From: Chiloscyllium plagiosum
Taxonomy: Eukaryota
Reading direction: 5' to 3'
DNA: 47,198 nt
NCBI RefSeq assembly: GCF_004010195.1
Contig: NC_057746.1
Location: forward strand, 9,437,183-9,484,380
Shown: piece after piece, positions 2,440 through 33,559 of the stretch
How positions within the stretch are numbered: the first letter of the stretch is position 1
Layout of the letters: each line of letters starts with the position of its first letter
Translations under genes and position numbers: made by a program
Notes under the pieces: model-generated
Database searches by the model: none
What the model was told of the DNA's origin: nothing
Seen by the model: the letters and a program-made list of their open reading frames with translations, nothing else

Positions 2440-3495
2440 GGAAAGCACGCAAAGAATGTTAACTGACAATAGAATTGAGTGACTTTAATTTTCTGGAGAG
2501 ACTGGAGGAACTAGAACTTTTTTCTTTAGTACTGGTAAATGGGAAAATTTTAAGGAAGTTCAGAATGATAAGCATTGAAACGGTAAGTTAAGATAAACTG
2601 TTTCCATTGGGAAGTGGATGGTTTCAATTATCAAATTATTGTGCTCATTTGAATGTGATTCAAAATACACAATTGAAAGTGAAGACACTCCAGAACAAGG
2701 AGTTTCCGTCCAAGGTTACACCATAGACCACTTAGGACTGCGATGAAGAGAAACTTCTTCAGCCAAAGAGTGGCCAGCCTGTGGAATTTGCAAAAATGAG
2801 ATAGAACATAGAACATAGAAAAATACAGCGCAGTACAGGCCCTTTGGCCCTCGATGTTGCGCCGATCCAAGCCCACCTAACCTGTACTAGCCCACTATCC
2901 TCCATATGCCTATCCAATGCCCGTTTAAATGCCCATAAAGAGGGAGAGTCCACCACTGCTACTGGCAGGGCATTCCATGAACTCTCTGCACCCGTTCCAG
3001 TGCCTCCACATCCTTCCTATAGTATGGCGACCAAAACTGCACACAAATTTTTTTTGTGCGGCCGCATCTGGAGTATTGTGTGCAAAAGATGAGGCCAAAA
3101 CTTTGCACGCTTTCAAGAAGGAGTCAGGTATGAAGTGATCAAAGGGCATGGGGAGAAAGCAGGAACAGGTACTGAGTTGGATGATCAGCCAGGATGGAGA
3201 AAGTGAGGACTGCAGATGCTGGAGCTCAGAGTCGAGAGTGTGGCGCTGGAAAAGCACAGGTGGTCAGGCAGCACCCGAGGAGCAGCAGAATCAACGTTTC
3301 AGGCATAAGCCCTAGATCAGGAAAGATGGATGAAGGGCTTATGCCCAAAACATTGATTCTCCTGCTCCTTGGATGCTGCCTGACCCACTGTGCTTTTTCA
3401 GCACCACACTCTTGACTCTGAACAACCATGATCATATATAACAACAGAACAGGCTCAGATGGTTGAATTGCCCACACCTGCTCCCATTTTCCATT
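2440..3495 (+). mobile_element. Composite of CR1 3' fragments (nested minus-strand copy 2800-3045; Penelope insert 3196-3418)
   Basis: RNFFSQRVASLWN motif, and a catagaacatagaa tail on the nested copy. Confidence 0.7.
3196..3418. mobile_element. Fold-back Penelope-like terminal-repeat element
   Basis: About 95-bp inverted arms centred near 3325, a 33-nt unpaired tail, and a degenerate 14-bp TSD (3182-3195 / 3419-3432). Confidence 0.75.
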
Positions 3496-3589
3496 TTGCT
3501 GATGTGATCTCCCACCCTTGTTGACAGTTTTAGGTCAAATTACTGAAAGTGAGCAAGTGTTTCGAGTGCTTTAAACAGCAGCATGCAGT

Positions 3590-4030
3590 AAGAATCACAG
3601 AACCATACAGCACAGAAACAGACCCTTCAGTCCAGCTAGTCCATGCCAAACATAATCCCGAGCCAATCTAGTTCTACCTTCCTGCTCCTGCCCCATTTCC
3701 CTCCAAACCTATCCTATTCATTTATTTATCCAAATGTTTTTTTACACATTGTAATTGTACCCTCATCCATCACTTCCGAAGGGAGATCATTCCACATGCA
3801 ATCCATCCTCTGTATAAAAATATTTTAGTGTCTTTTTCAAATCTCTCACCTTAAAAAAATGCGCCACCCTCGTCTTGAAGTTCCTCCATCCTCAGGCACT
3901 CCTCCCATTAACCCGATCCATGCACCTCATTATTTTATAAACCTCGATAAACTAACCTCTCAACCTTCTATGCTCCAGTGGAAAAGTGTTCCAGCCAATC
4001 CAGCCTTTCTTTATAATTCAAACTTTCTCT
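3590..4030 (-). mobile_element. CR1 3' fragment
   Basis: cacagaaacagacccttcagtcca terminus shared with other CR1 ends. Confidence 0.75.
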
Positions 4031-4629
4031 TAGAATAAATAATCTTAAATTCCATTTTTTGGTACCATTTTAGAAGCAGGTACACATTTTCCCATCATGG
4101 GTGTAACACTAACACGTGATGGAAATACCACACTTCGTGAGTGACAGAGGTGGTAACCACAGCTCACTTGGTCACCCAATCGCTTCTTAATGAAAAGGTC
4201 AGGTGACACTCCTCCACTGTCAAAAGTCCAGGCTAATCTGGGGGCAGGGACAGACCACTATAAACAAACATCAAAGAAGCGCTTCGCAGGAGGCTCCCAA
4301 GCACTGATGATGTCGCCTAGCCAGGGGACGAAACGTTTGCAACAAAAACTTCCAGCTCGGCGAACAGAACCACAACAACGAGCACCCGAGCTACAAATCT
4401 TCGCACAAGCTTTCTCTTGGAATAAATAATCTTAAATTCCATTTTTTGGTACCATTTTAGAAGCAGGTACACATTTTCCCATCATGGGTGTAACACTAAC
4501 ACGTGATGGAAAGACCACACTTCGTGAGTGACAGAGGTGGTAACCACAGCTCACTTGGTCACCCAATCGCTTCTTAAGGAAAAGGTCAGGTGACACTCCT
4601 CCACTGTCAAAAGTCCAGGCTGATCTGGG
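4023..4629 (+). repeat. About 220-bp direct duplication (4023-4242 / 4410-4629) flanking a Penelope-like terminal fragment
   Basis: The two copies differ at only about 4 positions by eye. Confidence 0.92.
4301..4340 (+). ncRNA. Minimal type I hammerhead ribozyme motif in Penelope-like fragment (4243-4409)
   Basis: GCA-CTGATGA-T-GTCGCCT agcc AGGGGAC-GAAAC-GTT-TGC: both core boxes, stem II and a 3-bp stem I. Confidence 0.65.
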
Positions 4630-5020
4630 ATTACTGAGTGAGCATAGCACTGTCAGAGGTGCTTCCTTTCAGATCAGATGTCAAGCTGAAGTCCTATCCA
4701 TATTATCAGGCGGATAGAAAGGATCTTGTGCTGTAATTTTGAAAGAAGGCAGGGAAGTTATCTTTGGTGTTCTGGCTGATATTATCTCTCAAGCAGCATC
4801 ACAAAAAAAAATCGATGATTAGCTGGTCATCTCTCAAGCAGAATCTCTCTCACACACATAAAAATCACAGATTATCTGGTCATTATCACTTGCTAAATGT
4901 GCAAATTTAACATGCTTCCCCTGTAATATTATTCTGATTGCACTTCAAAAAGAAAATCGCGGCTGAAAGGGACTCGTATATATTCAGTAATCGTGAAAGT
5001 CTCTAAATACATACAAAATT
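4590..5020 (+). mobile_element. Deu-domain SINE (SacSINE1-like), decayed
   Basis: gcactgtcagaggtgc..tttcagat, cagattatctggtcattatcac, cacttcaaaa and gtgaaag blocks in Deu-SINE order. Confidence 0.7.
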
Positions 5021-5144
5021 TCTGGCGTTTAGCTGTCAGTAGGTCAGGAACGGTTTATTCAGATCACAATTTTCAATTGCGTATGTTTCGGTGATGAAAA
5101 ATATCGGCTTTTGGCTCATTGCACTTTGAACTGTAATTGATGAA

Positions 5145-5160
5145 GAAACGAAAATGAAAA
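5145..5160 (+). promoter_or_regulatory. ISRE/IRF-E-like element upstream of TRIM ATG
   Basis: GAAACGAAAATGAAAA has three GAAA cores, including GAAANNGAAA, 35-50 bp upstream of the start codon. Confidence 0.6.
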
Positions 5161-5194
5161 TGCAAGGTACATCATAAAACAAGTGTGCAGGAAG

Positions 5195-5611
5195 ATGGCC
5201 GCTGACAAGCAGGTTTTAATCTCGACTGAGGACTTAACCTGCTCTATCTGCCTGTCCCTGTTTGTGGAGCCGGTGCAGTTGGAGTGCGAGCACAATTTCT
5301 GCAAATCCTGCATCCAGGCGTATTGGGAAAACCAGGGGAAGGTGGTGTCCTGCCCGGAATGTCGCGCAGTTTCCCAGCAGAAGAGTTATAAGAAGGCCAG
5401 AGTGTTGGCCAATCTCTGTGAGAAAGCCCGGCAGCTGGAGCTGAACCCGGGGCTGCAGCAGGAAGGGGGTTCCCGCTGTCTGGAACACGATGAGAAGCTG
5501 AAGCTGTTCTGTCAGGACGACCAGGCTCTGATCTGTGTCATTTGTCGAGATTCACCCGCACACTCAGGCCACAGCTTCCTGCCTGTCACTGATGCAGTGA
5601 GAAAGTACAAG
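5195..5611 (+). CDS. TRIM (RING-B-box-CC-B30.2; TRIM39/RFP/nuclear factor 7-like) coding exon 1: RING + B-box2
   Basis: ATG at 5195 (aagATGg). C3HC4 RING CSIC..CEHNFC..C..CPEC and B-box CLEH..FCQDD..ICVIC..H..H are both intact. Ends AAG|gtaaga, 417 bp, phase 0. Confidence 0.95.
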
Positions 5612-5934
5612 GTAAGAGGCGAGAGAGAGAGAGAGCGCGCCTTCAGCTTGTGACTGGGATTGCAGGAGTGAAGGGCTGCAGTCACTTGTTGCCTGAAGAC
5701 TCAGGATCCCCGGATCTCTGTTTGCAATCAGACCGCTGGATTTTTCTCTCTCTCTCTCTCTCCAACCCGGCATTGGGGGTTCCTTGCTGTTTAGCTGAGA
5801 GCCCGTTCAAAGCAGTGCCCAGAATCTGATTGCTCAGTGTGAGGGACACGGTCAGATCCTGTGTGGTTTGTGGGTGTCTGACTCTGGGCTGGGTCATTTT
5901 GATTAATGTCCTTTGTTTACCTTTGATCACCATT

Positions 5935-7470
5935 TTTTCTACGGTGCAGCAAGAGGCCCTTCGGTCGCTTTCTTCTGGCTGACATTTAAGCGACTGCTGG
6001 ACATGCACATGGATAGCAGTGAGTTGAGGGGTGCACAGGTTAAGTTACTATATTTTACATTAGGATTAAGTCTCGGCACAACCTTGTGTTCCCAAGGCCC
6101 TGTCTGTGCTGTACTTTTCTATGTTCAATGTTCTATGCCCTCTAGTTTTGGATGCCCCTACACTAGGAAAATGACCTTGGCCGTTCACCTTATCTTTTCC
6201 CGTCATGACATTACAAACCTCAATAAGGTCACTCCTCAGCCTCCTATAGCCAGGGGGAAAAAAAATACCAGCCTATCCAAGCCTCTCCTTATAGCCCAAA
6301 TCATCCAGTCTCAGTAACATCATTATAAATCTTTTTTGCGCCCTTTCCAGTTTAATAACATCCTTCCTACATTCAGGGTGACCAGAAGTGTATGCATTAC
6401 TCCAAATGTGATCTTACGAATGTCTTGTTAATGTTACATGATGCCCTGTACTCAATGCTCTGACCAACAAATTGTAGCTTACAGACCATGTGCGAACTAA
6501 TCACTGGATATGCCCCGTCCCACTGACAGGATGAGTGCAGCAGACATGGCACTGGTGTACAATCAGAGGGGAGATGCCCTGGGAATCCTCAGAGTATAGC
6601 ACCAGAACCTGTGAAGTATCATGGCAGACTACCCTGTCTCAGCTGAGGAATACTACCTGGAGGAAGCACTCAGGTTGACAAGGGTGCAGAACACACTGGT
6701 ATTAGCAAGGTGGACCGAATTCTGCACTGGACTGATGAGAGTCAAAGGCCTACACAGCATGGAAGCAGGCCCTTCAATCCAACTCATCCACACCAGACAT
6801 CCTAAATTAATCTAGTCCAATTTGCCAGCATTTGGTCCATATCCCTCTAAACCCTTTCTATTCATTTACACATGCAGATGCCTTTTAAATGTTGTAATTG
6901 TACCAGACACCACCAGTTCCTCTGGCAGCTCATTCCACCACCCACTCAGTGAAAAATTGTCCCTTAAATATTTCCCCTCTCACCATAAACCTATGCCCTC
7001 ACATTTTGGACTCCTGCACCCCAGGGAAAAGACCTTGGCTATTCGTCCTATCCATACCCCTCATGATTTTATAAACTTCAATAAGGTCACCTCTCTGAGT
7101 GTACAACACCCCAGGGAAAATAGCCCCAGCCTATTTAGCCTCTCCCTACAGCTCAAACCTTCCCCCCTGGCAATATCCTTGTCAACCCTTTCAAGTTTCA
7201 CAACATCCTTCATGTAGCAGGGAGAGCAGAATTGAATGCAGTATTCTAAACGTGGCCTAGCCAATGTGCTGTACAGCCGCAACATGACCTCGTAACTCCT
7301 ATACTCAATGCACTGACTGATAAAGGCAAGCATACCAAACTTGTCACTATCTTGTCTATGTGTGACTCCACTTTAAAGGAGCTATGAACCTGCATTCCAA
7401 GGTCTCTTTCTTCCCCAAGATATTGCCATTAAGTGTGTAAGTCGTGGTCTGATTTTTCTTTCCAAAATGC
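5935..7470 (-). mobile_element. Cluster of CR1 3' fragments in TRIM intron 1 (+ strand tail at 5985-6135)
   Basis: ORF 7061-7333 LARPRLEYCIQF; CR1 tails. Confidence 0.75.
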
Positions 7471-7693
7471 AGACTACCAGCAGATCATTTTGTTTCTCTG
7501 TCTGAATGGTTAGAGTGGTTTTGAGGTCTTGATCAGTTCAAATTGAATGGTGAAAAGTCTGCCTGCACAGCAGTTTTGAAGTATGCATTTCAGTTAAATA
7601 GTTACAAGTTTCTTTTTTAACAATTAATTTAATTGATTTGAAACCTCCACACTACAATTATTTCAAAGCATTTTCAAACACCCCTTCATTGAG

Positions 7694-7990
7694 AGATTAT
7701 TAGATTACTTACAGTGGGGAAACAGCCCTTTCGGCCCAACAAGTCCACACCGACTCTCTGAAGAGCAACCCACCCAGACCCATTCCCCTCCATTTACCCC
7801 TTCACCTAACACTATGGACAATTTAGCATGGCCAATTCACCTAACCTGCACATTTTTGGACTGTGGGAGGAAACCCACGCAGACACGGGGAAAATGTGCA
7901 AACTCCACACAGACAATTGCCTGAGGTGGGAATTGAACCTAGGTCTCTGGTGCTGTGAGGCAGCAGTGCTAACCACTGTGCCACCGTGCC
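7694..7990 (-). mobile_element. tRNA-derived HE1/V-SINE
   Basis: Reverse complement of ggcacggtggcacagtggttagcactgctgcctcacag with a B box ggttcaattcc. Confidence 0.9.
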
Positions 7991-8338
7991 ATTTTGTCCT
8001 TGTTTATTAGCAGTGGAGCAAATTTAGTTCACTACTTTTGTAATGTTGATGACCTACATGTGTGTTCTGCTGAAGGTCCTCAGTTGCTGTGAATATTGCT
8101 TGAAACTCTTGGGTTTCTGCTCTTTACCATGTCTCAAAAATCCTACCTCATACATTGCACATTGCCCCCACCATTTCCAATGTGTTTCTGTCCTTCCTTT
8201 AATCAGGTCGTCAAACTGGGACAATATATAACAATTGCTGCACAAATGCTGCACAAATTCAATGCCATCTGATTTGTTTTGTACTTGACCTCTATCAATA
8301 CAAAACCAAACATGGAGGCTGAATTTTCCAATTTTTTT

Positions 8339-8640
8339 GGGACAGCATGTTGGCTCAGTGGTTAGCACTGCTGCCTCTCAGTACAAGGGACCTGGGTTCG
8401 ATTCCTTCCTCAGGCAACAGTCTGTGTGCAGTTTGCACGTTCTCCCCGTGTTTGCATACGTTTCCTCTTCAATCGAAAGATGGGCTGATTTAGAGTGGGT
8501 TGACTATGCTAAATTGCCCGCAGTGTCAAGGAAGTGTAGGATGGATTAGCCATGGGAAATGCACGGTTATGGGGTGGGTGAATCTGGGTGGAGTGCTCTT
8601 CATTGGATTGGTGTGGACTTGATGGGCTGTTGTCTACATT
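8339..8640 (+). mobile_element. HE1/V-SINE, decayed
   Basis: tggctcagtggttagcactgctgcctc..gggttcgattcc. Confidence 0.8.
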
Positions 8641-9545
8641 TGGCCCATCATGTAGCTGTTGGAATGGCTTTAAATGTTGTAACTGTAGCTGCATCTGGCA
8701 GTTTGTTCCACATATGAACCACTCTGTGTGTGAAAAAGTTGCTCTTCAGGTGCCTTTTAAATCTTTCTCCTTTCACCTTTAAATTATGCCCACTAATTTT
8801 GAATTCCCCAACCATGGAGAAAAGCCATTTACTATTCACCTTAAGGCTGTCCCTCATGAGTTTATAAACTTCAGTGAGGTCACCCATCAAATTCCTACAC
8901 TGCAATGAAAAACGTCCCAGCTTATCAAGCCTCTCTTCATAACTCTCACTCTCCATCCTGTAAATCTTGTCTGCACCTTCTGCAATTTAATAATATTATT
9001 CATATAACAGAGCAACCAGAACGTAAGCAATACTCCAAAACTGACATCAGCAATGTCAGGTAAAACCACAACATGATATCCTAACTCCTTTACTCTGTGG
9101 TCTGAGCAATGAAGGCAAGCATGCTAAATTCTGGATTCGTGGTGCTGGAAGAGCACAGCAGTTCAGGTAGGATGCTGCCTGAACTGCTGTGCTCTTCCAG
9201 CACCACTAATCCAGAATCTGGTTTCCAGCATCTGCAGTCATTGTTTCTACCAAGCATGCCAAATGCCTTCTTTACCCCTCTGTCTACCTGTGATGCAACT
9301 TTCAATGAACTTCGTATCTGAAGCTCTGGGTAGCTGTTCTACAACATTCACTAGGACCTTCCTATTAATTCTGTAAGTCCTGCCCTTATTCATATTATTA
9401 AAATGCAAACCTCGTATTTATCTAAATTAGACTCCATCTGCCACTCCTTGGCCCAAAGGTCCAAAATCCTTTTTAATCTTAGATAACCTTCCTCACTGCC
9501 TACTCTACCACCAATTTTGGTTGTTATCAGCAAACCTATGAAACA
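8640..9545 (-). mobile_element. CR1 3' fragment
   Basis: ORF 8648-8956 YEERLDKLG..FFTHRVVHMWNKLP. Confidence 0.85.
9130..9250. mobile_element. Short fold-back Penelope-like element
   Basis: About 38-bp inverted arms, a 35-nt tail, and TSD caagcatgc(t/c)aaat (9116-9129 / 9251-9264). Confidence 0.8.
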
Positions 9546-10394
9546 TATTTCCTCATGGTAATCTCAGCTGGTGTTGGAGTCACTCTGCCCTGCAAAGTGC
9601 ACCTTGACTGACCGTGACAATACACCATGAATGATCGTAGTGTCCTTTCAGACCATTAAGTGCTAGTCCCCTTTGACGTCTGCACATGGCCATTTGGATG
9701 AAGCATTTGTTTACCATGTAAGTATTCTGGAGGAATGAAGTTGAAGTTGCAAGGTGCCATGTTGTTCAGTGCTCCGAACTGGGATAAACTTCCACCTCTC
9801 CCTGTTTGCAAAAAAAATACAGAATCTGTCAGCCTCCATAAAGTGAGTGCGTACTAAGAAATGAAGCTCAGAGCCAAATCATATATGGATGCATGAAATG
9901 TAAGACTGTATAAACTAGAAATGTGTGTTTGTCCCTGCGTTTACAACAACCTGACGGAAGGGTGGTAAGTCACAGATGTCCCTGAGCTCCCAAAGGGAAG
10001 CCCTGAAGTGCTGAAGTGATGTCTCGGTTGATCTGAAAGCAGGCATGATGATGTGGCAAGCCTGGTCATTTACTGGTGCCGAATTGCTTGGATTAGGTGT
10101 GGAGGAGGATAAGGGCGCAGAGAAGCAAGTGGTGAGCTGTTGTCGTCGGGTAATTGCTCTGACTCTCGCTTCTGTAGTTCATCACAGAAAGAGAGGAGAA
10201 TTGAAAGCTGCATAGAACTGAAATAAAGTGGGCTATTGATGAGATGCAAATGCACAGAAAAGCAGTAATCACCACTCATGAGTGACGTTTTGAACTTGCC
10301 ACTTTAAATCTTAAAGGGGGATTTCAGAATTCTTATTTTTATGATATCGATAATCTGATTTCTTTTTCATTTTTGACATATTTTCCCACGTTCC

Positions 10395-10513
10395 TCCCCA
10401 TTTCCCACACAGACATGGGGAGAATGTGCAAACTCCACACAGACAGTGGCCCAAGGTGGGCGTCAAACCTGGGTCCCTGGTGCAATGAGGCTGCAGTGCT
10501 AACAACTGAGCCA
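10395..10513 (-). mobile_element. HE1/V-SINE 5' part
   Basis: gtgcaaactccacacagacag..gcagtgctaac. Confidence 0.75.
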
Positions 10514-10514
10514 C

Positions 10515-10860
10515 TCAGTTTTGAGTCAGAAGGTCTTGGATTCAAGATCCGACTCCACATATTGAAGGAATGTTCCTCAATTGGAGGTGTCATTTTTTAG
10601 ATGAAATGTTAAATCTGCTCGATTAGATAGATATGGCATTATTTTGAGGAAAAGCAAGGGATTCGTGAAGTCACAACCAATATTTATCCCTCAATTAACA
10701 TCACAAAAACAATTCCTTTTGTTGATTATTAAATTGCTGTTTGTTTGAGTTTTCTGTATGGAGATTAGTTTCAGTATTTCTTCCATTATTACAGGGACTG
10801 TGTTTCAGATTAACTTCTTTGGTAATGAAGTGCTTTGGAATGCCCTGCGGGTATGGAATG
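10515..10860 (+). mobile_element. Deu-domain SINE, decayed
   Basis: gagtcagaagg..ggaggtgtc..ccaatatttatccctcaa..attgctgtttgt. Confidence 0.7.
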
Positions 10861-10974
10861 TACATGGAACACCACAATGTGCGTATTCCCTCCCAGACCA
10901 CATCACATCATGGCTTGGAACTCTATCACCATTCCTCCAATATCTCTAAGTCAAAAGCCTGGAACTTCCAGGAA

Positions 10975-11640
10975 GCTGGCATCCATGTTCGATGGGTAAT
11001 CATGAGAGAAAATTGGATGTTAGCCTTTATTTCAAAGAAAATGGAATATAAAAATAAGGAGGTTTGCTGAAACTGTACAAAACACTAGTCAGATGATAGA
11101 TGGAGTATTGTGAAATGTTTTGTGTCCCTTAACTAAGGAAATCTAACTGTCCTGGCATTGGAGGCAATCCACATAAGGTTCATTCATCTGATACCTGGCA
11201 AGGAGGGTCTGTCTTATGAAGAGAAGTTGAGTAGATTGGGCCTTGAAATATAAAAGAATGAAAGGCTACCTTCTTGAAACAATCAAGATTTTTAGAGAAC
11301 TTGAAAGGGGAGATGTTATTTCCCCTTGTGGGAGAGTCCAAGAGCAGTGGGCATAATCTTAGACTCAGGAGCCACACATTTAATACAGAAATGAGGAGGA
11401 ATCTTTCACAGAGGGTTGTGAATCTGTTGATTTGTTTGCCTCAGAACTGTTGAGGCTGAGTCATGAAGTATATTCAGAGCTGAGGATAGATGAATTTTTA
11501 AATAGTGAGAGAATGGGGAAAATTTTATGGTGAAAAGGCAGGAATGTGGAGTTGAAGATGATCAGATCAACTATGATCTTATTGAATGGCAGAGAAGACT
11601 CAATGACCTATTTCTACTGCTTTGCCATATGGTATTTTAG
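10975..11640 (+). mobile_element. CR1 3' fragment nested in an L2-type 3' end (10870-11800)
   Basis: MLAFISKKMEYKNKEV; tail gatcagatcaactatgatcttattgaatggcaga. Confidence 0.75.
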
Positions 11641-12330: not shown

Positions 12331-12564
12331 GAACTCACACAATTCCTGGAGCAACACATCTCTGAACAGTTTGCCAAAATTCAACAATATCTTGAAGACA
12401 AAAAGGCATGCTTAATTAGAGAACTCCAAATGCAACGGGAAGATGCTTTTAAATTAATGGACTTAAATTTGGCAGAAATTAACAAAGAATTAAAATCCCT
12501 TGAAGAGGATGTATCGAAACTCCAAGCTGTCATTCACCAGGAAGACAATATCACTTTTCTCAAG
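12331..12564 (+). CDS. TRIM exon 3 (coiled coil)
   Basis: cctag|GAA..AAG|gtatca. 234 bp open frame ELTQFLEQHISEQFAKIQQYLEDKK...DNITFLK. Confidence 0.92.
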
Positions 12565-12929
12565 GTATCAGTTTACAAACCAGAACCATTCCTGTTTCTG
12601 CAGGCACTGTCAATGATCAGTAGGCTCAGGCGATTATGTCAGTGTTAAGGGACAGGGTTTCTGCTTCAGGTTTGAAGGACACTTTACTTTCACAAGGTTC
12701 CAGTACAAATCTGCAGACAATGTTCAAGTGAACTCTATTACAGCCAACTGAATCACGATTTATTAAGCACGAATACTGGGGACAGTACCATGAATACTAA
12801 CAATCATGTTTCAGTCTAAGTGAGCTCCAGCACGTATGGGCCAGGAGTTGATATGATAATACTCCATACCTTTAGTCAACTTGTTATGACAAAGATTGTA
12901 ATACTGATCGAGTCCTGTGACACTGTGAT

Positions 12930-15466: not shown

Positions 15467-15554
15467 GTGCGTATGATTTATACCTACATATTTTCTAAAA
15501 ATGAGCATATAGCATTATTTTGAGAAATTAAACCAAGTTGTCGATCCAATTCAG

Positions 15555-15862
15555 ATACCTTGGGAGTGAAAAGAGTGAAAGTGAAGAAGAGACAAGTGAT
15601 GATGTTGGTGAAGATGACAATAAAAATGAAGGTGACAGTGATGATGATAAAAATGATGATGCAAGTGATGATGACCATGATGATGGTGAAATTAATGATG
15701 ACACTGATGGCGATGAAAATGAGAGAATTGATGAAGCAAGTGATCATGAATCAGATGAAAATGATGAAGACGTGGTGGAGTTTAGTGACCTGATACTGGG
15801 AAAGTTCAGGGGACCTTTGCAATATGCAATATGGAAGGAAATGAAAGAAATCCTCTCTCCAG
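15555..15862 (+). CDS. TRIM exon 5 (linker with long D/E-rich tract)
   Basis: ttcag|A TAC..CCA G|gtaaga. 308 bp, ending in the TRIM linker motif LGKFRGPLQYAIWKEMKEILSP. Confidence 0.9.
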
Positions 15863-16436
15863 GTAAGACATGACCTGCTGTTAACCGCATGGCACTCATT
15901 TGCCCTAATATAAAATGGCTGTCATATGCTTGAATTAGAATGAATAAATGATTTGCTGCTTGTGGTGTCTGTCATTTCAAGATTTAGATTGTGGTTCCAT
16001 TGACTTGAACACAATTGACTATTAGGCAGGGTATATCACTGTTGGTACATGGAGTAAATTTACCTGCTTGGCATCATAGCCTGCCATCCCCACTCCAGGC
16101 TGTTCCAAATTCTAATTTCCAATATCACTTATCCTCAGGAGCTCAAGGTTCAAACAATCTTCATGGAGGAAATTGATGTAAGGTCATTTATTGCAATATT
16201 ATAAATTCAATAAATAAATGAAACAATTTGTCCTCTTGATTGCAAAAGAAACCTGTCTGTGGTGCTGGCATGAATTGGCCATTTGGTATTAGCGCACAAT
16301 TCAGTATTCAGACCGATTGAGGTCAGTTGGTGTCTGTAACAGATCCAACTCCACCTAGTTTACACCAAAATTGAATTCCTACAAAGGGGATTGTAAATAT
16401 CAGGGTTATTTATTTATTTATGGTCATAAAGGTGGA

Positions 16437-17992: not shown

Positions 17993-18890
17993 AAAAATTC
18001 AATGTAACTTAAACTTAGTGAAAACATTTGTGATTCAGCTCCAAGGTTATATTACATGAGAGTGATCAATTCTCAGACTATAAATGAATAACCATTGTTT
18101 TTATAAGTTAGCATGTGTAAAACCTTTTGAGTCTAAAAGTTTTGGCCCAGATATTGATAGTACGTAACAACTTGGATGCAGTTCCACTGAATATAGTACT
18201 CCGACATGACACTAACCAATAATATATATTCACAATGACACTAGTTACTTAGAATACCCATGACCCAGAGTCAGTCTCAAGTGGTCAGTCCATAAAAAGA
18301 TATCCTGACACGGTTTCTGACCAACTGACCTAACTGCACACGCTAGCTACAAACATGCAGCATTTACAGTTTCCTTTTTTATACCACTTTGTTTTCTAGC
18401 ACTTTGCCATATAAGGTCAGATCTATTTTTTGGCCGGCGTAAATACTTTTCAGTGACATCACTGTCCTATTTGAAGTCATGTCCAGATGTATTCTCTCTG
18501 GACTCTCCTCATGTTTATCCTTGGCTGTCTGTGGTCTTTATTTTCAACTTTCTTATATTTATATTCACAGAAACAACAGGGCCCAGGTCTTGAACATAGT
18601 GTTTTTTTTTTAATTTGTAGGCTTTTGGCAAAAATCTGCATCTCAGTTCCTCAGGGAGAATACCAATTTCTTCTTTGATGTCCATCCATGAGATAAGCCC
18701 AATACCACAGAACTCCACTGCAATCCTTATGTTCATCAATAGGAAATAAATAAAAGCATGATTCAAAATGATTAATACAATGTGAGAGAAAATAATGCAG
18801 AGCTTTGCTGTGTCTATTTTGTGTGTGTCTATGTGTGTATGGACTTATACATGTATAGCTTTTAACTTGTGTTACTTTATTTCCTCCAAG

Positions 18891-19405
18891 TTCCAGCACC
18901 ACTGCTTTTTGACCCAGACGCAGCACATTCTCAGCTGACCGTGTCTGATGACCAGACTAGCGTAGAACTCGATGACATGAAGGTTGTTAATGAGTCGGAA
19001 TATCTTGATATCCTGGGATCAGAAGGATTTACATTTGGGATACACTACTGGGAGGTGGCAGTGGGAGACATCTCTGACTGGCTTATTGGTGTAGCCACTG
19101 AGTCAGCCACTGAAGAGGAAATGGTGGATATTTTCCCTGAACATGGATATTGGACTCTGTTATTGAGAGATGGAGATGAATATTATGCTAATGAGACTCT
19201 GAAATTGGATGTGAAACCCAGGATCATTGGTATTTACCTGGACTATGAGGGAGGACAGGTGTCATTTTATAATGCTGATGATATGTCTCATCTCTTCACT
19301 TACACTGACACATTCACTGGAAAACTTTTTCCATGTTTTGCTCTTGTTTGCAATGATAATGTTGAAAACAATGAGCCTCTTAGGTTGAACCACTTACTAA
19401 TATGA
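18891..19405 (+). CDS. TRIM exon 6 (PRY/SPRY = B30.2 domain) to stop
   Basis: ccaag|TT CCA. Motifs FDPDAAH, LGSEGF..G.HYWEV, GIYLDYEGGQVSFYN, KLFPCF; TGA at 19403-19405. Spliced CDS is 1593 bp = 530 aa. Confidence 0.95.
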
Positions 19406-19448
19406 GACATTAAGCTATAGAGGTTCATGAGAATAGAACAGAAATGGA

Positions 19449-24835: not shown

Positions 24836-25499
24836 TTAACTACCATCCGGTTGGTCTCACCGACAGTGGCAGCAAAGATAGTGATAGGGTGAGAATTGGT
24901 GCAGATTGGAATGTGTGGGAGACAAAGTTAAAAGAAACACAGCAACAATGAGACACTCGAGAGAACGAGAGTTTTAGAAAGGTAGTTAGCAGGAGAACGG
25001 AAAAGGGATAGGCAGAGAGAGGGAGACAGAAGGGGCTTTGATACGAAGTAAAGACAATAACTGTAATGTGAAGGGAGACATTATAGATACAGCAATAAAA
25101 AGTGTCAGGAATAAACAGGGACAGAGAGAAAGAGACAATGGCAAAAGGAGAGAAAATAGTTTGAGCCTGTGAAATATGGGGCAAAGGACAGAACAGTCCT
25201 TTCTCTGCAGCAAATAAAAATTAAATGAGCTTGATCCCAGATGGATGAGCTTTTTGAAATGTTGTGCAGTGCAGCCTGTTTTTACCTTCTGTTTGTATCC
25301 AGTGGATTAGCTTCTGGAGGTTAATGAATAACTAAAGCAGGGACAATGGACGATTATTTTTCTGGCTTATTACTGGCTTTGTATCCTGCTGTAATGCCCC
25401 ACATACTGCCTTTCTGCACTCAGTGCTCATGTTTATATAAGCAGAATTATTCTTTACACCAGTTTTGGAGAGTGGCAGGATGGGAGCTGAAAGAGAAGT

Positions 25500-26467
25500 T
25501 CATAGAACATAGATTGTTACAGCGCAGAATGGGGCCTTCGGCCCTCAATGTTGCATGGACCTGTGGAATGAATCTGAAGCCCATCTAACCTACACTATTC
25601 CATTTTCATCTATATGTTTATCGAATGACCATTTAAGTGCTCTTAAAGTTGACAAGTCTACCACAGTTTGTGGCAGTGCCTCTCCTACTCTCTGAGTAAA
25701 GAAACTACCTCTGGCATCTGTCCTAATGCTATTACCCCCCAATTTAAAGCTATGACCCCTTGTGTTCACCTTCACAATCCAATGTAAAAGACTCTCCCTG
25801 TCCACCCTGTCTAACCCTCTGATTATCTTCTATGTCTCAACCTTCTTCTGTCTAATGAAAATGGCCTCAATTCCCTAAGCATTTCCTCATTCCCTCCAAA
25901 TCAAGCAACATCCTCATAAATCTCCTTTGAACCCTTTCCAAAGCTTCCACATCCTTCCTAGAACTGCATGCAATATTCCAAGTGAGGCTGCACCAGAGTT
26001 TTGTACAGCTGCAGCGTGACCTCTTGTCTCCGAAATTCAATCCCTCTTCCAATAAAAGCTAACACACCTTGTGCCTTCTTAACAACCCTATCCACCTGGG
26101 TGGCAAATTTCAGGGAACTATGTACATGGACACCGAAATCTCTCTGCTCATCTACACAATCAAGAATATTACCATTAGCCCAGTAATCTTTATTCCTGTT
26201 GCTCCTTCCAAATTGATTCACCTCGCACTTATGCGCATTAAACTCCACCTGCCACCTTTCAGCCCAGCTGTACAGCTTATCTACATCCCTCTGTGAGCTG
26301 CAACATCCTTCACCACTATCCACAACTCCACCAATCTTAGTGTCACCCGCAAATGAACTAACCCATCCTTCTATGCCCTCATCTAGGTCATTTATAAAAG
26401 TGACAAACAGCAGTGGCTTCAAAACAGATCCTTGCAGTACACCACAAGTAACTGAACACAGGATCAT
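25500..26467 (-). mobile_element. CR1 3' portion, interrupted by the + strand CR1
   Basis: ORF 25958-26467 with GVLQGSVL, FAGDTK, PHLEYC. Continues at 29423. Confidence 0.9.
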
Positions 26468-29422
26468 AAGGACAGACTGACGGGCAGAGGGGGTGGGGTG
26501 GCCATGTTGGTAAGGGATGATATTCAGTCCCTTGTGTGGGGGGGAACCTAGAATCAGGGGATGTAGAGTCAGTATGGATAGAGTTGAGAAATTCTAAGGG
26601 TAAAAAACCCTCTTGGGAGTTATCTACAGGACCCCAAACAGTAGTCTGGATGTCGGATGTAAGTTGAATCAGGAGCTGAAATTAGCCTGTCGCAAAGATG
26701 TTACTACAGTTGTTATGGGGGATTTCAACATGCAGGTAGACTGGGAGAATCAGGATGGTATTGGACCTCAAGAAAGAGACTTTGTGGAGTGCCTCCGAGA
26801 TAGATTCTTAGAACAGCTGGTCCAAGAGCCTACCAGGGAGATGGCAATTCTGGATCTGGTATTCTGTAACGACCCAGAATTGATCAGGGACCTCGAAGTG
26901 AAGGAGCCATTGGGAAGTAGTGACCATAGCTGAAAATGTGTTGCTGGAACAGCGCAGCAGGTCAGGCAGCATCCAGGGAACAGGAGAATCAACATTTCGG
27001 GCATAAGCCCTTCTTCAGGAATGCGGGCTTATGCCCGAAACGTCGATTCTCCTGTTCCCTGGATGCTGCCTGACCTGCTGCTCTGTTCCAGCAACACATT
27101 TTCAGCTCTGATCTCCAGCATCTGCAGACCTCACTTTCTCCTCCAAGTAGTGACCATAATACAATAAGCTTCAATCTGCAATTTGAGAGGGAGAGGGTAT
27201 AATCGGAAGTGATAATATTTCTGTTGAATAAAGGGAACTATGGAGCAATGCGGGAGGAGCTGGCCAAAGTTCAATGGTGCAATATCTTATCAGGGATGAC
27301 AGTGGAGGAACAATGGCGGATATTTCTGTGTATAATGCAGAAGACGCAGGATCAGTTCATTCCAAAAAGGAAGAAAGTTCCTAGGAGGAGGCATGGGTGG
27401 CCGTGGCTGACGAGGAAAGTTAAGAAACATATAAAGTTAAAAGAGAAAAAGTATAACATAGCAAAGATAAGTGGGAAAACGGAGGACTGGGAAGCTTTTA
27501 AAGAACAACAGAGGATGACTAAGAAGGAAATAAGCAGAGAAAAAATGAGGTACAAAGGTAAACTGGCCAAAAATATAAAGGAGGATAGTAAAAGCTTTTT
27601 TAGGTATGTGAAAGGCAAAAAAATGGTTAGGACTAAAATTGGGCCCTTGAAGACAGAAATGGGGGAATATATTACAGGGAACAAAGAAATGGCAGAAGAA
27701 TTGAATTGGTGCTTCAGATCTGTGTTCACTGGGGAAGACACAAGCAATCTCCCTGAGGTAACAGTGGCTGAAGGACCTGAACGTAAGGGAATTTATATTT
27801 GCCAGGAATTGGTGTTGGAGAGACTGCTAGGTCTGAAAGTTGATAAGTCCCCGGGGCCTGATGGTCTACATCCCAGGGTACTGAAGGAGGTGGCTCTAGA
27901 AATCGTGGATGCATTGGTGATTATTTTCCAGAGTTCGATAGATTCGGGATCAGTTCCTGTGGATTGAGGGTGGCTAATGTTGTAGCACTTTTTAAGAAAG
28001 GTGGAAGAGAGAAAGCACGAAATTATAGACCAGTTAGTCTGACCTCAGTGGTGGGAAAGATGCTGGAGTCTATTATAAAGGATGAAATTACGACATATCT
28101 GGATAGTAGTAACAGGATAGGTCAGAGTCTGCATGGATTTATGAAGGGGAAATCATGCTTGACTAATCTTTTTGAATTTTTTGAGGATGTAACTCTGAAG
28201 ATGGACGAGGGAGATCCAGTAGATGTTGTGTACCTGGACTTTCAGAAAGCTTTTGATAAAGTCCCACATAGGAGGTTAGTGAGTAAAATTAGGGCGCATG
28301 GTATTGGGGCAAAGTACTAACTTGGATCGAAAGTTGGTTGGCTGACAGGAAACAAGGAGTAGTGATAAACAGCTCCATTTCGGAATGGCAGGCAGTGACC
28401 AGTGGGGTACCGCAGGGATCAGTGCTGGGACTGCAGCTTTTTACAATACACATCAATGAGAGAGAAGATGGTATTAGTAATAACATTAACAAATTTGCTG
28501 ATGATACTAAGCTGGGTGGCAGGGTGAAATGTGATGAGGATGTTAGGAGATTACAGGGTGACCTGTGCAGGTTAGGTGAGTGGTCAGATGCATGGCAGAT
28601 GCAGTTTCATGTGGATAAATGTATGATTATCCACTTTGGTGGCAAGAACAGGAAGGCAGATTACCACCTCAATGGAATCAATTTAGGTAAAGGGGCAGTA
28701 CAAAGAGATCTGGGTGTTCTTGTACACCAGTTAATGAAGGTAAGCATGCAGGTACAGCAGGTAGTGAAGAAGGCTAATAGCATACTGGCCTTCATAACAA
28801 GAGGGATTGAGTATAGAAGCAAAGAGGTTCTTCTGCAGCTGTACAGGGCCCTTGTGAGACCACAATTGGAGTATTGTGTGCAGTTCTGGTCTCCAAATTT
28901 GTGGAAATACATTCAGGCTATTGAGGGAATGCAGCGTAGGTTCACGAGGTCAATTCCTGGATTGGCGGGACTACCTTACGCTGAAAGACTGGAGCGACTG
29001 GGCTTGTATACCCTTGAGTTTAGAAGACTGAGAGGGGATCTGATTGAGACATATAAGATTATTAAAGGATTGGACACTCTGGAGGCAGGAAACATGTTTC
29101 CGCTGATGGGTGAGTGCTGCACCAGAGGACACAGCTTAAAAATACGGAGTAGACCATTTAGGACAGAGATGAAGAGAAACCTCTTCACCCAGAGAGTGGT
29201 GGGTGTGTGGAATGCTCTGCTACAGAAGGCAGTGGAGGCCCAGTTTCTGGATTCATTTAAGAAAGAGTTGGATAGAGCTCTCAAGGACAGTAGAATCAAG
29301 GGTTATGGAGATAAGGCAGGAACAGGATACTGATTATGGATGATCAGCGATGATCATATAGAATGATGGTGCAGGGTCAAAGGGCAGAATGGCCTACTCT
29401 TGCACCTATTGTCTATTGTCTA
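26468..29422 (+). mobile_element. CR1 LINE, nearly complete ORF2 (endonuclease + RT), inactivated
   Basis: EN motifs GVIYR, MGDFN, SDH; RT motifs YLDFQKAFDKVPH, GVPQGSVLG, KFADD; ends in an (ATTGTCT)n tail. Broken by an insertion at 26929, stops near 27200 and 27965, and a frameshift near 28310. Confidence 0.95.
26929..27144. mobile_element. Fold-back Penelope-like element inside CR1 endonuclease
   Basis: About 83-bp near-perfect arms, a 37-nt tail, and perfect TSD aagtagtgaccata (26915-26928 / 27145-27158). Confidence 0.88.
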
Positions 29423-29900
29423 TTTCCCATCAGGCACAACCCTCTGTCTTCTTTCAGCTAGCCAATTTCTGATACAAACTGCAAAATCACCCTCAATCCC
29501 ATGCCTCAATATTTTGGGCAATAGGCTAACATGGGGAACTTTATCAAATGCCTTACTGAAATCCAGATACACCACATCAACTGCTTTACCCTCATCCACC
29601 TGTTTGATCACCATCTCAAAGAACCTAATAAGGTTTGTGCATGACCTACCTTTCACAAAACCATGTTAACTAAACTAATCAACTTCTTCGATTGGAGATG
29701 ACAATAAATCCTATCTCTTATAACCTTTTCCAACACTTTACCCACAACCAAAGTAGGACTCACTGGTGTATAACTACGAGTGCCGTCTCTACTCACCTTC
29801 TTGAACAAGGCGGCAACATTTGCTATCTTCCAATCTTCAGGCTAATTTGTAACTCTCAGGTGCCCTAACTGAGCTATCACATCTTCTCCTAATATAAGCC
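29423..29900 (-). mobile_element. CR1 fragment, continuation of 25500-26467
   Basis: ORF 29420-29656 YLDFSKAFDKVPH..NWLAERRQRVVPDGK joins the frame that resumes at 26467. Confidence 0.85.
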
Positions 29901-29914
29901 TTCTTCTTCCATTT

Positions 29915-31090
29915 AGACTCAGAGTCATAGAGATGTACAGCATGGAAACGGACTCTTTGGTCCAACCCATCCATGCTGACCAGATATCCCAACCCAATCT
30001 AGTCCCACCTGCCAGCGCCCAGCCCATATCCCTCCAAACCCTTCCTATTGATATACCCATCCAAATGCCTCTTAAATGTTGCAATTGTACCAGACTCCAC
30101 CACATCACCTGGCAGCTCATTCCATACACGTACCACCCTCTGTGTGAAAACGTTGCCCCTTAGGTCTCTTTTATGTCTTTCCCCTCTCACCCTAAACCTA
30201 TGCCCTCTAGGTCTGGACTCCCCAACCCCAGGGAAAAGACTTTTGCCTATTTATCCTATCCATGCCTCTCATAATTTTGTAAATCTCTATAAGGTCATCC
30301 CTCAGTTTCCGACGCTCCAGGGAAAACAGCCCCAGCCTGTTCAGCCTCTCCCTGTAGCTCAGATCCTCAGCACATCGTTGGATGGTGGGAGGAAACCGGA
30401 GCACCCGGAGGAAACCCACGCAGACACAGGGAGAACGTGCAAACTCCACACAGTCAGTCGCCTGAGGCGGGAATTGAACCCGGGTCTCTGGCGCTGTGAG
30501 GCAGCAGTGCTCACCACTGTGCCACCGTGCCGTCCCTGTAACTCAGATCCTCCAACCATGGCAACATCCTTGTAAATCTTTTCTGAACCCTTTCAAGTTT
30601 CACAACACCTTTCTAATAGGAAGGAGACCAGAATTGCATGCAATATTCCAACAGTGGCCTAACCAATGTCCTGTACAGCCGCAACATGACCTCCCAACTC
30701 CTGTACTCAATACTCTAACCAATAAAGGAAAGCATACCAAACGCCTTCTTCACTGTCCTATCTACCTGCGACTCGACTTTCAAGGAGCTATGAACCTGCA
30801 CTCCAAGGTCTCTTTGTTCAGCAACACTCCCTAGGACCTTACCACTAAGTGCATAAGTCCTGCTAAGATTTGCTTTCCCAAAATGCAGCACCTCGCATTT
30901 ATCTGAATGAAACTCCATCTGACACTTCTCAGCCCATTGGCCCATCTGGTCCAGATCCTGTAATCTGAGGTAACCCTCTCCGCTATCCACTACACCTCAA
31001 ATTTCGGTGTCATCTGCAAACTTGCTAACTGTACCTCTTATGCTCGCATCCAAATCATTTATGTAAATGACAAAAAGTAGAGGACAAGAG
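29915..31090 (-). mobile_element. CR1 3' fragment with nested SINE
   Basis: RT C-terminal ORFs (VFTQRVVRVWNELP; DLGVQVHSSLK) and a CR1 3' tail. Confidence 0.9.
30369..30532 (-). mobile_element. HE1/V-SINE, 3'-truncated, with about 20-bp TSD
   Basis: tccctgta(g/a)ctcagatcctc on both flanks. Confidence 0.88.
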
Positions 31091-31599
31091 CTTCAACTTA
31101 TTTGGTAAACCACGGCTCCCTCGCTCGACCACTTCCTCCCTGCCTGACAGGCACATACTTATTGAGGACACACAGTAGCAGTTGCTTGAATAAGCTCCAC
31201 ATTTCAATTATGCCCATCCTCTGCAGTTTCCTTCCCCATTCTATGCATCCTAAATCTTGCCTAATCACATCATAATTGCCTTTCTCCCACTATAACTCTT
31301 GCCCGCAGTATATATGTATCCCTTTCCTTTGCAAAAGTAAACATAACTGAATTGTGGTCACTATCATCAAAATGCTCACCTACCTCCAAATCTAATGCCT
31401 GGCCAGGTTGATTCCCCAGTACCATAGTTTTTAATCAATACATTGAATTCAGTCATTTACAGTTTTATTCTTAATAATACAAATGGTTCAACTGAAAGAA
31501 ATTATGTTATGTTAATACTTGTTAGATTTGGGGTTGTGGAAAAGTCACGTTATCACTGACACAGAATGAAACACTGTGGGTTGAATGGTCTACAGGCCA

Positions 31600-32475
31600 T
31601 ACTGATTCTTACCTCCGCTGCAAGCGATCCCACAAGCAATGGATCAGATCAAAGCTCTGTGGTCCTGCCATGTCCAGTCGTGAATGGTGGTGGACAATTA
31701 AAAAACTCACTGGAGCAAGAGACTCCACAAGCACTGGGCGGCACGGATGGCACAGTGGTAAGCACTGCTGCCTCACAGTGCCAGAGACCTGGGTTCTATT
31801 CCCGCCTCAGGCAACTGTCGGTGTGGAGTTTGCACATTCTCCCCGTGTCTGCGTGGGTTTCCTCTGGGTACGCCGGTTTCCTCTGGGTGCTTTGGATTCC
31901 TCCCACAGTCCAAAAATGTGCAGGTTAGGTGAATTGGCCATGCTAAATTGCCGATAGTGTTAGGTGAAGGGGTAAATGTTGGGGAATGGGTCTGGGTGGG
32001 TTGCTCTTCGGACTTGTTGGCCCAAAGGTCCTGTTTCCACACTGTAAGTAATCTAATCTAATCTACTTCCATTCTCAATGAAGGGGGAGTCCAGAACTTC
32101 ACTGCAAATGATAAGCCTGAAGCATTAGTAAGAATCATCAGCTACAAATGCAGAGTAGATGATCCATCTCAGACACACCAGCTTCACAATCTTTAGCCAA
32201 TTTGACACACTCCATGTGATATTAAGATACACCTGGATGCCACTGGATGCTGCAAATTGTCGGATAGTCTCTGATAATATTCTGGCAAATGTGCTCAAAC
32301 TCCTGGCCAAGCTGTTCCCATGCAGCTGAACACTGGCATCAACCCGGCAATGTGGAAAATTGCTCAAGTATATCCTTCAGACAAGAAGCAGGGCAAATCC
32401 AACCCGCCCAATTACTGCTCAGTCAGTCTCATCTTGATTATTAGTAAAGTGATGGAAAGGCTCACCAACAGCGTT
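31600..32475 (+). mobile_element. L2-type LINE fragment split by a SINE
   Basis: SSREWWWTIKKLTG; MWKIAQV..KSNPPNYCSVSL motifs. Confidence 0.7.
31736..32065 (+). mobile_element. Full-length HE1/V-SINE
   Basis: gggcggcacg..A and B boxes..(aatct)n tail. Confidence 0.92.
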
Positions 32476-33137
32476 ATCAAGCAACGTCCCTAAATCTTGA
32501 GAGTTGCATGTGTTTAATTATAACCCATGGTAATGAAGCCGTGGAAAGTGTAAACATTGTATCTTCCAGAAGAAGAAAGTTCTGGTGAAATTTACACAGA
32601 ATTTCTATTACAGCATCATAGCTGTAATCTCCATTACCCAAACAAAAACAACAGTCTGATAAAAAAAAACAGAAAACGGAAACTACTGTCATACCAGACA
32701 GAGAGGGAATCTAAAGCAAATTACTGCAGATGCTGGAATCTATACGGAATACAAAAAAAAAATGCTGGAAATCACAGCGGGTCAGGCAGTATCCATGGAG
32801 AGAGAGTGAGCAAGCTAACATTTCAAGTCTAGATGACTCTTCATCGGAGCTGAAATGAAGTGTGGAGGAGGCAGCATATACACAATAGTGATGGGTGGGG
32901 TATGGAGTGCTGAGAGAGGAAGGACGTTGATAGTTCAGATTAAGTGATCAGAATGTGAGAAAGGTAGAACAATGGTTTGTCTAACTACCAGACTGGAAAA
33001 GACTGACAATCCCACTGGAGTTGGGGGAGGGGAGAGAGCTTAAGCGACACTTAAAGGACAGGAATGAGGTTCACAATTTAAAGCCATTGAACTCAATACT
33101 GAGTCCAGAATGTTGTAAAGTACCTAGTTTGAAGATG

Positions 33138-33512
33138 TGATTTGGAGATGCCGGTGTTGGACTGGGGTGTACAAAGTTAAAAATCACACAACACCAGGTT
33201 ATAGTCCAACAGGTTTAATTGGTTTAATTAGTGTGCTTCCAATTAAACCTGTTGGACTATAACCTGGTGTTTGAGGAGAAAGTGAGGTCTGCAGATGCTG
33301 GAGATCAGAGCTGAAAATGTGTTGCTGGAAAAGCGCAGCAGGTCAGGCAGCATCCAGGGAACAGGAGAATCGACGTTTCGGGCATAAGCCTTCCTGAAGA
33401 AGGGCTTATGGCCGAAACGTCGATTCTCCTGTTCCCTGGATGCTGCCTGACCTGCTGCGCTTTTCCAGCAACACATTTTCAGCTATAACCTGGTGTTGTG
33501 TGATTTTTAACT
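33138..33512. mobile_element. Fold-back element (second family) with TSD tagtttgaagatg
   Basis: Inverted arms agttaaaaatcacacaacaccaggttatagtccaacaggtttaattgg, a 37-nt tail, and TSD 33125-33137 / 33513-33525. Confidence 0.82.
33272..33484. mobile_element. Fold-back Penelope-like element with hammerhead core
   Basis: About 80-bp arms, a 37-nt tail, TSD (ct)ataacctggtgtt, and CTGAAGA-agggcttatggcc-GAAACGTC at 33394-33421. Confidence 0.88.
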
Positions 33513-33559
33513 TAGTTTGAAGATGAAATGTTGCTCCTCCAATTTTTGCAATTAAATCT

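Follow-up and report, generated by a model that had tools for sequence, protein, structure and literature searches.

Five short fold-back inserts in Chiloscyllium plagiosum DNA as likely end pieces of Penelope-like retroelements

In the window, the 47,198-nucleotide stretch of Chiloscyllium plagiosum DNA analysed here, we located five TSD-flanked fold-back inserts that are likely very short end pieces of Penelope-like retroelements (PLEs), and we lean toward the view that each was made from two target-primed cDNAs, one per nick, which were truncated and end-joined head to head at the landing site. All five had been claimed in a preliminary description and lie where it placed them (E1, 3196-3418; E2, 9130-9250; E3, 26929-27144; E4, 33138-33512; E5, there 33272-33484, with the body from tail through short arm now drawn as 33272..33482 and the right TSD from 33483). 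The combination of fold-back, tail, TSD and minimal hammerheads on opposite strands is the published PLE pattern, and the kind of element is not new; ordinary as it is, it is yet a useful footprint of the PLE mechanism. PLE insertions are described with an inverted 5'-truncated pLTR, a 30-40 bp tail and a TSD (Arkhipova et al. 2013, PMC3846280; Craig et al. 2021, PMC8557442), and the present inserts contain a head-to-head, 5'-truncated inverted copy of which the stumps alone remain (121-223 nt, no ORF). The parts of the inserts and of two linear relatives, E6 and E7, are as follows.

E1 left TSD: 3182..3195, degenerate, 3 of 14 positions differing from 3419-3432
E1 tail: 3196..3228, minus strand, 33 nt
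E1 long arm: 3229..3323, minus strand, extending about 3 nt upstream of a decayed CTGA box
E1 junction filler: 3324..3328, GATG repeating the start of the short arm, judged from sequence
E1 short arm: 3329..3418, plus strand
E1 right TSD: 3419..3432
E2 left TSD: 9116..9129, 14 bp, 1 mismatch to 9251-9264
E2 short arm: 9130..9169, minus strand, without hammerhead sequence
E2 long arm: 9170..9215, plus strand, beginning about 44 nt downstream of the CTGA box
E2 tail: 9216..9250, plus strand, 35 nt (33 with microhomology)
E2 right TSD: 9251..9264
E3 left TSD: 26915..26928, 14 bp, exact
E3 short arm: 26929..27023, minus strand, whole CTGA box (27018) plus 5 nt upstream, GUC site decayed
E3 long arm: 27025..27106, plus strand, beginning at stem II, without CTGA box
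E3 tail: 27107..27144, plus strand, 38 nt (37 with microhomology)
E3 right TSD: 27145..27158
E4 left TSD: 33125..33137, 13 bp, exact
E4 tail: 33138..33174, minus strand, 37 nt, second family
E4 long arm: 33175..33222, minus strand
E4 junction filler: 33223..33228, repeating the final letters of the long arm, private to the E4 locus
E4 short arm: 33229..33512 (33229-33271 plus 33498-33512), plus strand, split by E5
E4 right TSD: 33513..33525
E5 left TSD: 33257..33271, 15 bp, exact (13 with microhomology), within the E4 short arm
E5 tail: 33272..33310, minus strand, 39 nt (37 with microhomology)
E5 long arm: 33311..33393, minus strand, its TTC (33391-33393) common to the short arm
E5 short arm: 33391..33482, plus strand, minimal hammerhead core at 33394-33421 with one stem II mismatch
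E5 right TSD: 33483..33497
E6: 44040..44176, plus strand, linear one-armed copy of E2's family, 96% to E2
E7: 32712..33124, resuming at 33526-33551, minus strand, older related linear copy, host of E4

The TSD length of 13-15 bp given earlier was borne out by exact copies in E3 (14), E4 (13) and E5 (15), and E2 and E1 have 14-bp TSDs with 1 and 3 mismatches, respectively; in a chance control, an exact repeat of at least 13 occurred in 2 of 3000 random position pairs. The TSD of E1, whose target is a CR1-like 3' end, escaped a strict repeat search, but two CR1 paralogues that lack the insert, at 29341 and 33630 of the window, support it. Empty paralogues in the window also support E2, which sits in a LINE RT region with four of them, and E3, which interrupts a CR1-type endonuclease reading frame that resumes past the insert. 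E5 is nested in the E4 short arm and has E4's other arm as its empty site, and a minus-strand reading frame overlaps across both copies of the E4 TSD. The A+T content of the TSDs was 0.61 versus 0.57 in the window, and an ATT preference was not evident at the five sites. An A-T-rich flank consensus, considered as a target preference, was rejected as a plurality artefact.

All five inserts have an unpaired tail at one end only. With the TSD taken at its maximal length, the tails of E1 to E5 measure 33, 35, 38, 37 and 39 nt; allowing for 1-3 nt common to the TSD, they measure 30-33, 33-35, 37-38, 36-37 and 37-39 nt. The earlier figure of 33-37 nt, with 37 in three inserts, is hence one valid reading with microhomology, whereas maximal TSDs give 33-39 nt. 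The end of the short arm shares 1-3 nt with the target in all five inserts, a weak point given that the chance of five such microhomologies, 0.0014 when one side is counted, is about 0.02 for either side. The inverted arms span 93 nt at 86% identity in E1, 43 nt at 95% in E2, 89 nt at 94% in E3, 94 nt at 94% in E5 and 33-34 nt at 97-100% in E4, and whole-element folding gave z values of -15 to -23 in the four inserts folded. More than one sequence family is present, as previously suggested, but the "several" reduce to two groups: E1, E2, E3 and E5 (76-95% alike), with the arms of E3 and E5 differing at only 1-5 of 79 positions, and E4.

Pattern matching found a candidate minimal type I hammerhead core in E3, E5 and E6. 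Of the proposed hammerhead on both strands at the arm junction of three inserts, the CTGA box was present in E1, E3 and E5, but in one arm only, and an intact core, stem II and GUC occurred together in none of the five inserts. For the E4 family, loose ends in public contigs place a hammerhead core immediately upstream of the point where E4 stops, and the E4 short arm starts no more than 2 nt from the predicted cut site. A predicted stem II probability of 0.0 in whole E3 and E5, versus 0.99 in the E3 arm alone, suggests that the hairpin may sequester the hammerhead. An Rfam search at E up to 5 returned 14 matches, all below the gathering score and mostly microRNA hairpins, with no hammerhead among them. 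RNA run X21 contained no pile of molecule ends, although this is a polyA single-cell library from which cleavage is not readable. Pattern scans yielded 4 loci in viral, 11 in metagenome and 13 in prokaryote collections; the resemblance of all 28 hardly went past the pattern itself, and they were discounted as chance matches.

In public contigs the arms run on upstream into a longer parent. E6 has an arm, a tail and an intact minimal hammerhead core; a TSD was looked for and not found, and the copy halts at the same hammerhead front edge without a palindrome. E7 is 68-71% alike over arm and tail and continues into a decayed core, a spacer upstream and the last part of a reading frame, which may resemble the C-terminus of a PLE endonuclease. 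That frame end had no Pfam match, no candidate, no Atlas match, one spurious repeat protein and two chance PDB matches, and had none in one supplement with incomplete long sequences. A Pfam search of 150 of the 180 window frames of at least 70 aa found no GIY-YIG domain in any of the 150, while matching LINE RT and endonuclease and TRIM domains. The architecture suggests a tie of the inserts to an autonomous PLE ORF, which the protein searches did not confirm.

Identical junctions had been proposed as the sign that the hairpin itself transposes, and the junctions proved to be variable. The centres differ in all five inserts, including the near-identical E3 and E5; the unpaired centre is short-arm sequence in E3, E4 and E5 and long-arm sequence in E1 and E2, with locally repeated filler at two centres (E1, E4) and microhomology at two (E2, E5). 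In public contigs of three organisms, depth through the centre amounts to 0.004-0.005% of arm depth for E4 and to 1.3-6.2% for E5, and the 1-6% depth through an E5-like centre could be a small amplified sub-family. The abundance is very high, with 123,177-171,846 contigs aligned per DNA run. Among the 15 joints listed of 1069, 11 were fold-back joints, all different and seen in 1-4 contigs a run, in tables of short contigs biased toward the reference edge at 33391. Seven of these 11 were lopsided by 47-99 nt, the asymmetry being taken without direction as short contigs are compatible with either mirror, and one kept little beyond the tail. Contig ends pile at 33138 and 33173, 35 nt apart, and at 33274. 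Most changes among contig copies were C>T or G>A, the kind expected of copies in decay. Both E3 arms carry one variant, which reaches 6-8% of depth in organism A and stays below 0.3% in organisms B and C; its presence in both arms indicates that they came from one source.

As we picture the assembly, the nicks made by the element's enzyme in the two target strands would lie 13-15 bp from each other, each nick would prime one cDNA from one of two RNA start sites 33-39 nt apart, both cDNAs would stop early, and host end-joining would unite the two stumps head to head, making the centre. Both starts would belong to a single event, using either the same RNA or RNAs of common origin, and the hairpins would be dead-on-arrival products, not templates. 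A single folding-back cDNA could not account for E3, E4 and E5, whose short arm holds sequence absent from the tail-bearing arm. In L1 twin priming, two primed cDNAs of opposite orientation are joined between TSDs, as would be the case here; in L1, however, the site of second priming is variable and a different sequence becomes inverted, whereas here the second start would be fixed 33-39 nt inside, and therefore the same sequence would be copied twice. For Poseidon PAc in vitro, PMC11167929 describes both strands as nicked and extended, with two RT starts bounding the tail, a predicted dimer and a dispensable hammerhead cleavage; the earlier suggestion that tail length records enzyme geometry agrees with these two start sites. 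The arm stops lie no more than about 14 nt apart in all five window copies, which had been selected as hairpins, and do so even in E2 and E4, far from the usual stop. Such coupled stops are unexpected if twin starts are truncated independently, and are predicted by snap-back or by later deletion of a palindrome centre; the E5 centre, moreover, is compatible with snap-back via TTC/GAA.

Other origins were weighed against these twin starts. A PLE product could form de novo if one cDNA or an antisense RNA folded back on a short palindrome close to the hammerhead and primed its own copying, as put forward in PMC3846280, with endonuclease resolution leaving the tail (PMC8557442). This would suit the closely spaced arm ends of all five window copies and, through a 3-nt snap-back, the E5 centre, and variants common to both arms would follow automatically; but the centre polarity of E3, E4 and E5 is that of the tail-less arm, so that the tail needs a second start, and the lopsidedness of 47-99 nt in seven of the 11 listed fold-back joints also speaks against it, as do the extension of both strands and the tail lying between two RT starts in vitro (PMC11167929). 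We consider self-priming somewhat unlikely. Long palindromes are unstable, and longer head-to-head units might at first have been present and have lost their centres later, leaving near-symmetric centres with filler as in E2 and E4; this is improbable, however, given the lopsided joints and one-armed E6, which ends at the same hammerhead edge without a palindrome, and it leaves tail and TSD unexplained while fitting either priming model.

That the hairpin is a non-autonomous retrozyme-like unit, transcribed, self-cleaving and re-inserted whole, appears very improbable to us, and for E4 it is already largely refuted. Non-LTR retrozymes (Cervera and De la Pena 2020, PMC7229834; bioRxiv 10.64898/2026.07.22.740005) are likewise short, non-coding and PLE-related with a type I hammerhead, being reported as PLE derivatives in the latter, and the very high abundance and the 1.3-6.2% of depth through an E5-like centre would fit. 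They are, however, built of directly repeated units in tandem, every one with its own complete ribozyme, and give circular RNA, whereas the present inserts are inverted, single and broken: centres are private or varied, no insert of the five has an intact hammerhead, stem II is lost in the predicted whole-hairpin fold, copies follow the C>T and G>A decay pattern, and a tandem dimer is impossible for opposite-strand copies. The initial alternative of a retrozyme-like family or a fixed product of PLE integration therefore survives as an integration product; the variable junctions argue against a transposing unit, and "fixed" does not hold, given the varying arm lengths and centres and the linear one-armed copies present in the window. 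A MITE-like DNA transposon with its terminal inverted repeats joined mid-element would explain inverted arms and a TSD, yet the unpaired tail is always at one end, and hence the ends are not inverted repeats, which refutes this origin; one-armed copies, 5'-type truncation and hammerhead cores also speak against it.

EN+ PLE insertions share with the inserts the head-to-head copy, the 30-40 bp tail at one end, the TSD, strong 5' truncation and junction palindromes; unlike them, the inserts are stumps only, with TSDs of 13-15 bp versus 8-10 bp in the rotifer and a far higher abundance. In PAc of Anolis (Frangieh et al. 2024, PMC11167929), the tail likewise equals the interval between two RT starts, the hammerhead precedes the end by about 100 nt and an AC-rich stem-loop lies near the inner start, similar to the AC-rich run before the short-arm end of our inserts, in which pairing of the tail with sequence further upstream is predicted; the inverted arm, however, is not derived in the available part of that work, and an ATT preference is not evident here. 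Metazoan PLE minimal hammerheads (Cervera and De la Pena 2014, PMC4209133) similarly have a core without a stem III loop and are mostly solo, with opposite-strand pairs 100-700 bp apart already noted, whereas here the arms abut and usually one keeps the CTGA box.

More tentatively, and as something possible rather than probable, these genomes may contain roughly a hundred thousand footprints of a two-headed Penelope enzyme, with a short non-coding RNA from the hammerhead front edge moved in trans and reverse-transcribed twice, from two fixed starts, into both nicks of one target. If this is true, the lengths of tail and TSD, taken with the polarity of the junction, would read out the geometry of a step not yet reconstituted; later PLE insertion steps are called unvalidated in PMC8557442 and PMC11167929. 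Because the product is minimal and copies are plentiful, a genome-wide count of arm length and centre polarity can part twin priming from snap-back. Such inserts might also yield perfect double-stranded RNA when they lie in introns, and they present an annotation hazard in that they mimic MITEs and microRNA hairpins.

The five hairpin insertions are real and abundant. An inverted-repeat scan of the window recovered all of them among 30 pairs, as the preliminary description had claimed, and a strict search for target-site duplications (TSDs) found those of four. The window itself is of vertebrate origin and contains a TRIM-type gene along with numerous LINE fragments, and its repeats look shark-like.

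3196-3418: hairpin E1; tail 33 nt; TSD copies differing at 3 of 14 positions
9130-9250: hairpin E2, within an intron of the TRIM gene; tail 35 nt; TSD 14 bp with one mismatch
26929-27144: hairpin E3; tail 38 nt; exact TSD 14 bp
33138-33512: hairpin E4; tail 37 nt; exact TSD 13 bp
33272-33484: hairpin E5, inside E4; tail 39 nt; exact TSD 15 bp
32712-32860: E7, older linear relative and host of E4
44040-44176: E6, linear one-armed copy
4243-4405: end piece of a third family, with one arm and a hammerhead core at 4304; a direct duplication (224 nt, 98%) lies on either side of it (4019-4629) as a very long TSD-like scar
5144-5653, 12331-12648, 15532-15873, 18866-19405: exons of the TRIM gene (RING, B-box, coiled coil, PRY/SPRY), which has an acidic low-complexity stretch

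E1 was passed over by the strict search, but in two CR1 paralogues that lack the insert, the one site present matches both of its TSD copies; E2 and E3 likewise have empty paralogues, and at E3 and E4 the TSD copies are spanned by overlapping host reading frames. An exact repeat of 13 occurred in 2 of 3000 random position pairs. The claimed TSD length of 13-15 bp is thus borne out, by the search for E2-E5 and by the paralogues for E1. The tails, earlier put at 33-37 nt, reach 39 nt, each being 1-3 nt shorter when letters common to the TSD are assigned to the element. More than one sequence family is involved, but two rather than "several": E1, E2, E3 and E5 form one alignable group with E6 and E7, and E4 is separate.

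Identical centres at many loci had been taken beforehand to mean that the hairpin transposes, and variable centres that it forms anew at each insertion. We mapped contigs or reads from four of the 24 listed runs to positions 33060-33580, namely three DNA sets (organisms A, B and C) and one RNA set. The DNA sets gave 153,811 (A), 123,177 (B) and 171,846 (C) contigs, so that both families are very abundant, although depth does not equal copy number and some rows were uncounted. The E4 centre reached only 0.004-0.005% of the depth of its arm, and the E5 centre 6.2, 1.3 and 2.7% of the adjoining arm. Among the 15 listed of 1069 joints, 11 lie within E5, and all 11 differ, each with 1-4 contigs per run; seven are lopsided, by 47-99 nt, and several have their end at 33391, in part an effect of the reference arm stopping there. 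Loose contig ends accumulate at 33138, 33173 and 33274, that is, at the tail ends and an inner end 35 nt off, and upstream of the arms reads of both families run on into common parent sequence, which for the E4 family contains a hammerhead core. The left junction of E4 with its flank was found in all three organisms, and substitutions are predominantly C>T and G>A. Fixed ends with variable centres argue for de novo formation, and we dropped the reading of the hairpins as transposing units. The proposed retrozyme-like unit fell likewise, given inverted arms, variable centres and no intact core with stem II and GUC in any of the five; unlike E1-E5, retrozymes consist of units repeated directly in tandem, and their ribozymes are complete (PMC7229834; bioRxiv 10.64898/2026.07.22.740005). 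The 1-6% of depth with E5-like centres may come from joining that recurred at a TTC/GAA microhomology, or from a few copies that were amplified.

Read from hammerhead through arm to tail, the arms meet head to head, and the tail is found on just one of them. Three hairpins had been claimed to place ribozyme sequence on both strands; E1, E3 and E5 do have a CTGA box, but in a single arm each, and in E2 and E4 the arms end downstream of it. Linear E6 retains intact core, stem II and GUC. Predicted stem II pairing was 0.0 in whole E3 and E5, 0.99 in the E3 arm alone and in E6, and 0.07 in the E5 arm alone because of a stem II mismatch. The Rfam search found no hammerhead, which is what one would expect when cores lack stem III. 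E1, E3, E5 and E6 do not end at the cut site but 3-5 nt, or slightly more, upstream of the CTGA box; a short template RNA might begin at this stop. In one case, the E4 short arm begins at most 2 nt from its family's predicted cut site (33229). In an alignment fold, the tail is predicted to pair with sequence some 50 nt upstream, so that an AC-rich run right before the short-arm end lies between the paired strands; two-sided changes occur in just 1 of 21 pairs, so this pairing stays a prediction. The E3/E5 arm (e.g., 27065-27106) carries CTGAC, then a pyrimidine run and CAG, which we take to resemble a branch point and splice acceptor. Introns are known in PLEs (Penelope-like elements).

How the arms arise may be read from a lizard PLE protein that, according to PMC11167929, nicks the two target strands and extends each of them, begins reverse transcription at either of two sites bounding the tail, is predicted to dimerize and does not require hammerhead cleavage. 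Combining these findings, we infer that one nick would prime cDNA at the outer start site, giving the long arm, the other nick, 13-15 bp off, would prime at the inner site, giving the short arm, and both cDNAs would halt early and be end-joined. The model of PMC3846280 instead derives the mirror arm from snap-back self-priming of the cDNA, with which the E5 centre is compatible; in each of the five hairpins, moreover, the two arms end no more than ~14 nt apart, which counts against two starts. For two starts count the lopsided joints and the centres, of short-arm origin in three copies and long-arm origin in two. Filler in E1 and E4 copies adjacent letters, which we counted for end-joining; such filler is typical of polymerase-theta joining. 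In organism A, 6-8% of depth shows a variant that both E3 arms carry, and the two arms therefore come from one source. Also in favour of two starts, the 13-15 bp TSD is absent from the one-armed copies, E6 having no TSD found and the copy at 4243-4405 a 224-nt duplication instead.

The hairpins are likely PLE end pieces, four features of their architecture agreeing. The upstream part of E7 closes a reading frame whose end presumably resembles that of PLE endonucleases; protein searches gave no support for this identity, and PLE membership therefore rests on architecture. A 5'-truncated inverted copy with a 30-40 bp tail is typical of PLE insertions (PMC8557442), a 31-bp tail, 8-10 bp TSDs and junction palindromes are described (PMC3846280), minimal hammerheads are mostly solo and at times paired on opposite strands (PMC4209133), and similar features recur (PMC8969392, PMC6765202). 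E1-E5 are thus likely a new instance of an already described insertion product, and they are of value as a footprint of how PLEs integrate, one that lends itself to testing. Among the papers listed by searches of the open literature, none deals with minimal hairpins of this kind in cartilaginous fish, and "twin priming" does not occur in the PLE papers listed.

At 32712-33551, E5 within E4 within E7 forms a three-level nest, and E7 is itself interrupted by a CR1-like LINE at about 33570. Opposite-strand joints recur between element ends (33138, 33173, 33274 and 33314), both tail-to-tail across families (47, 12 and 35 contigs) and from tail to short-arm end within one family; they may mean that new insertions favour the termini of older copies. 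Elsewhere, a LINE-like inverted repeat (652-938 and 1848-2134) has 287-nt arms, 95% identical and 909 nt apart. In RNA run X21, poly(A) directly follows 33262 in 385 reads, downstream of ATTAAA/AATAAA in an E4-family arm (33229-33262), and 537 reads have their upstream end in common (agreement 0.92); one host transcript likely takes an E4-family copy as its poly(A) site.
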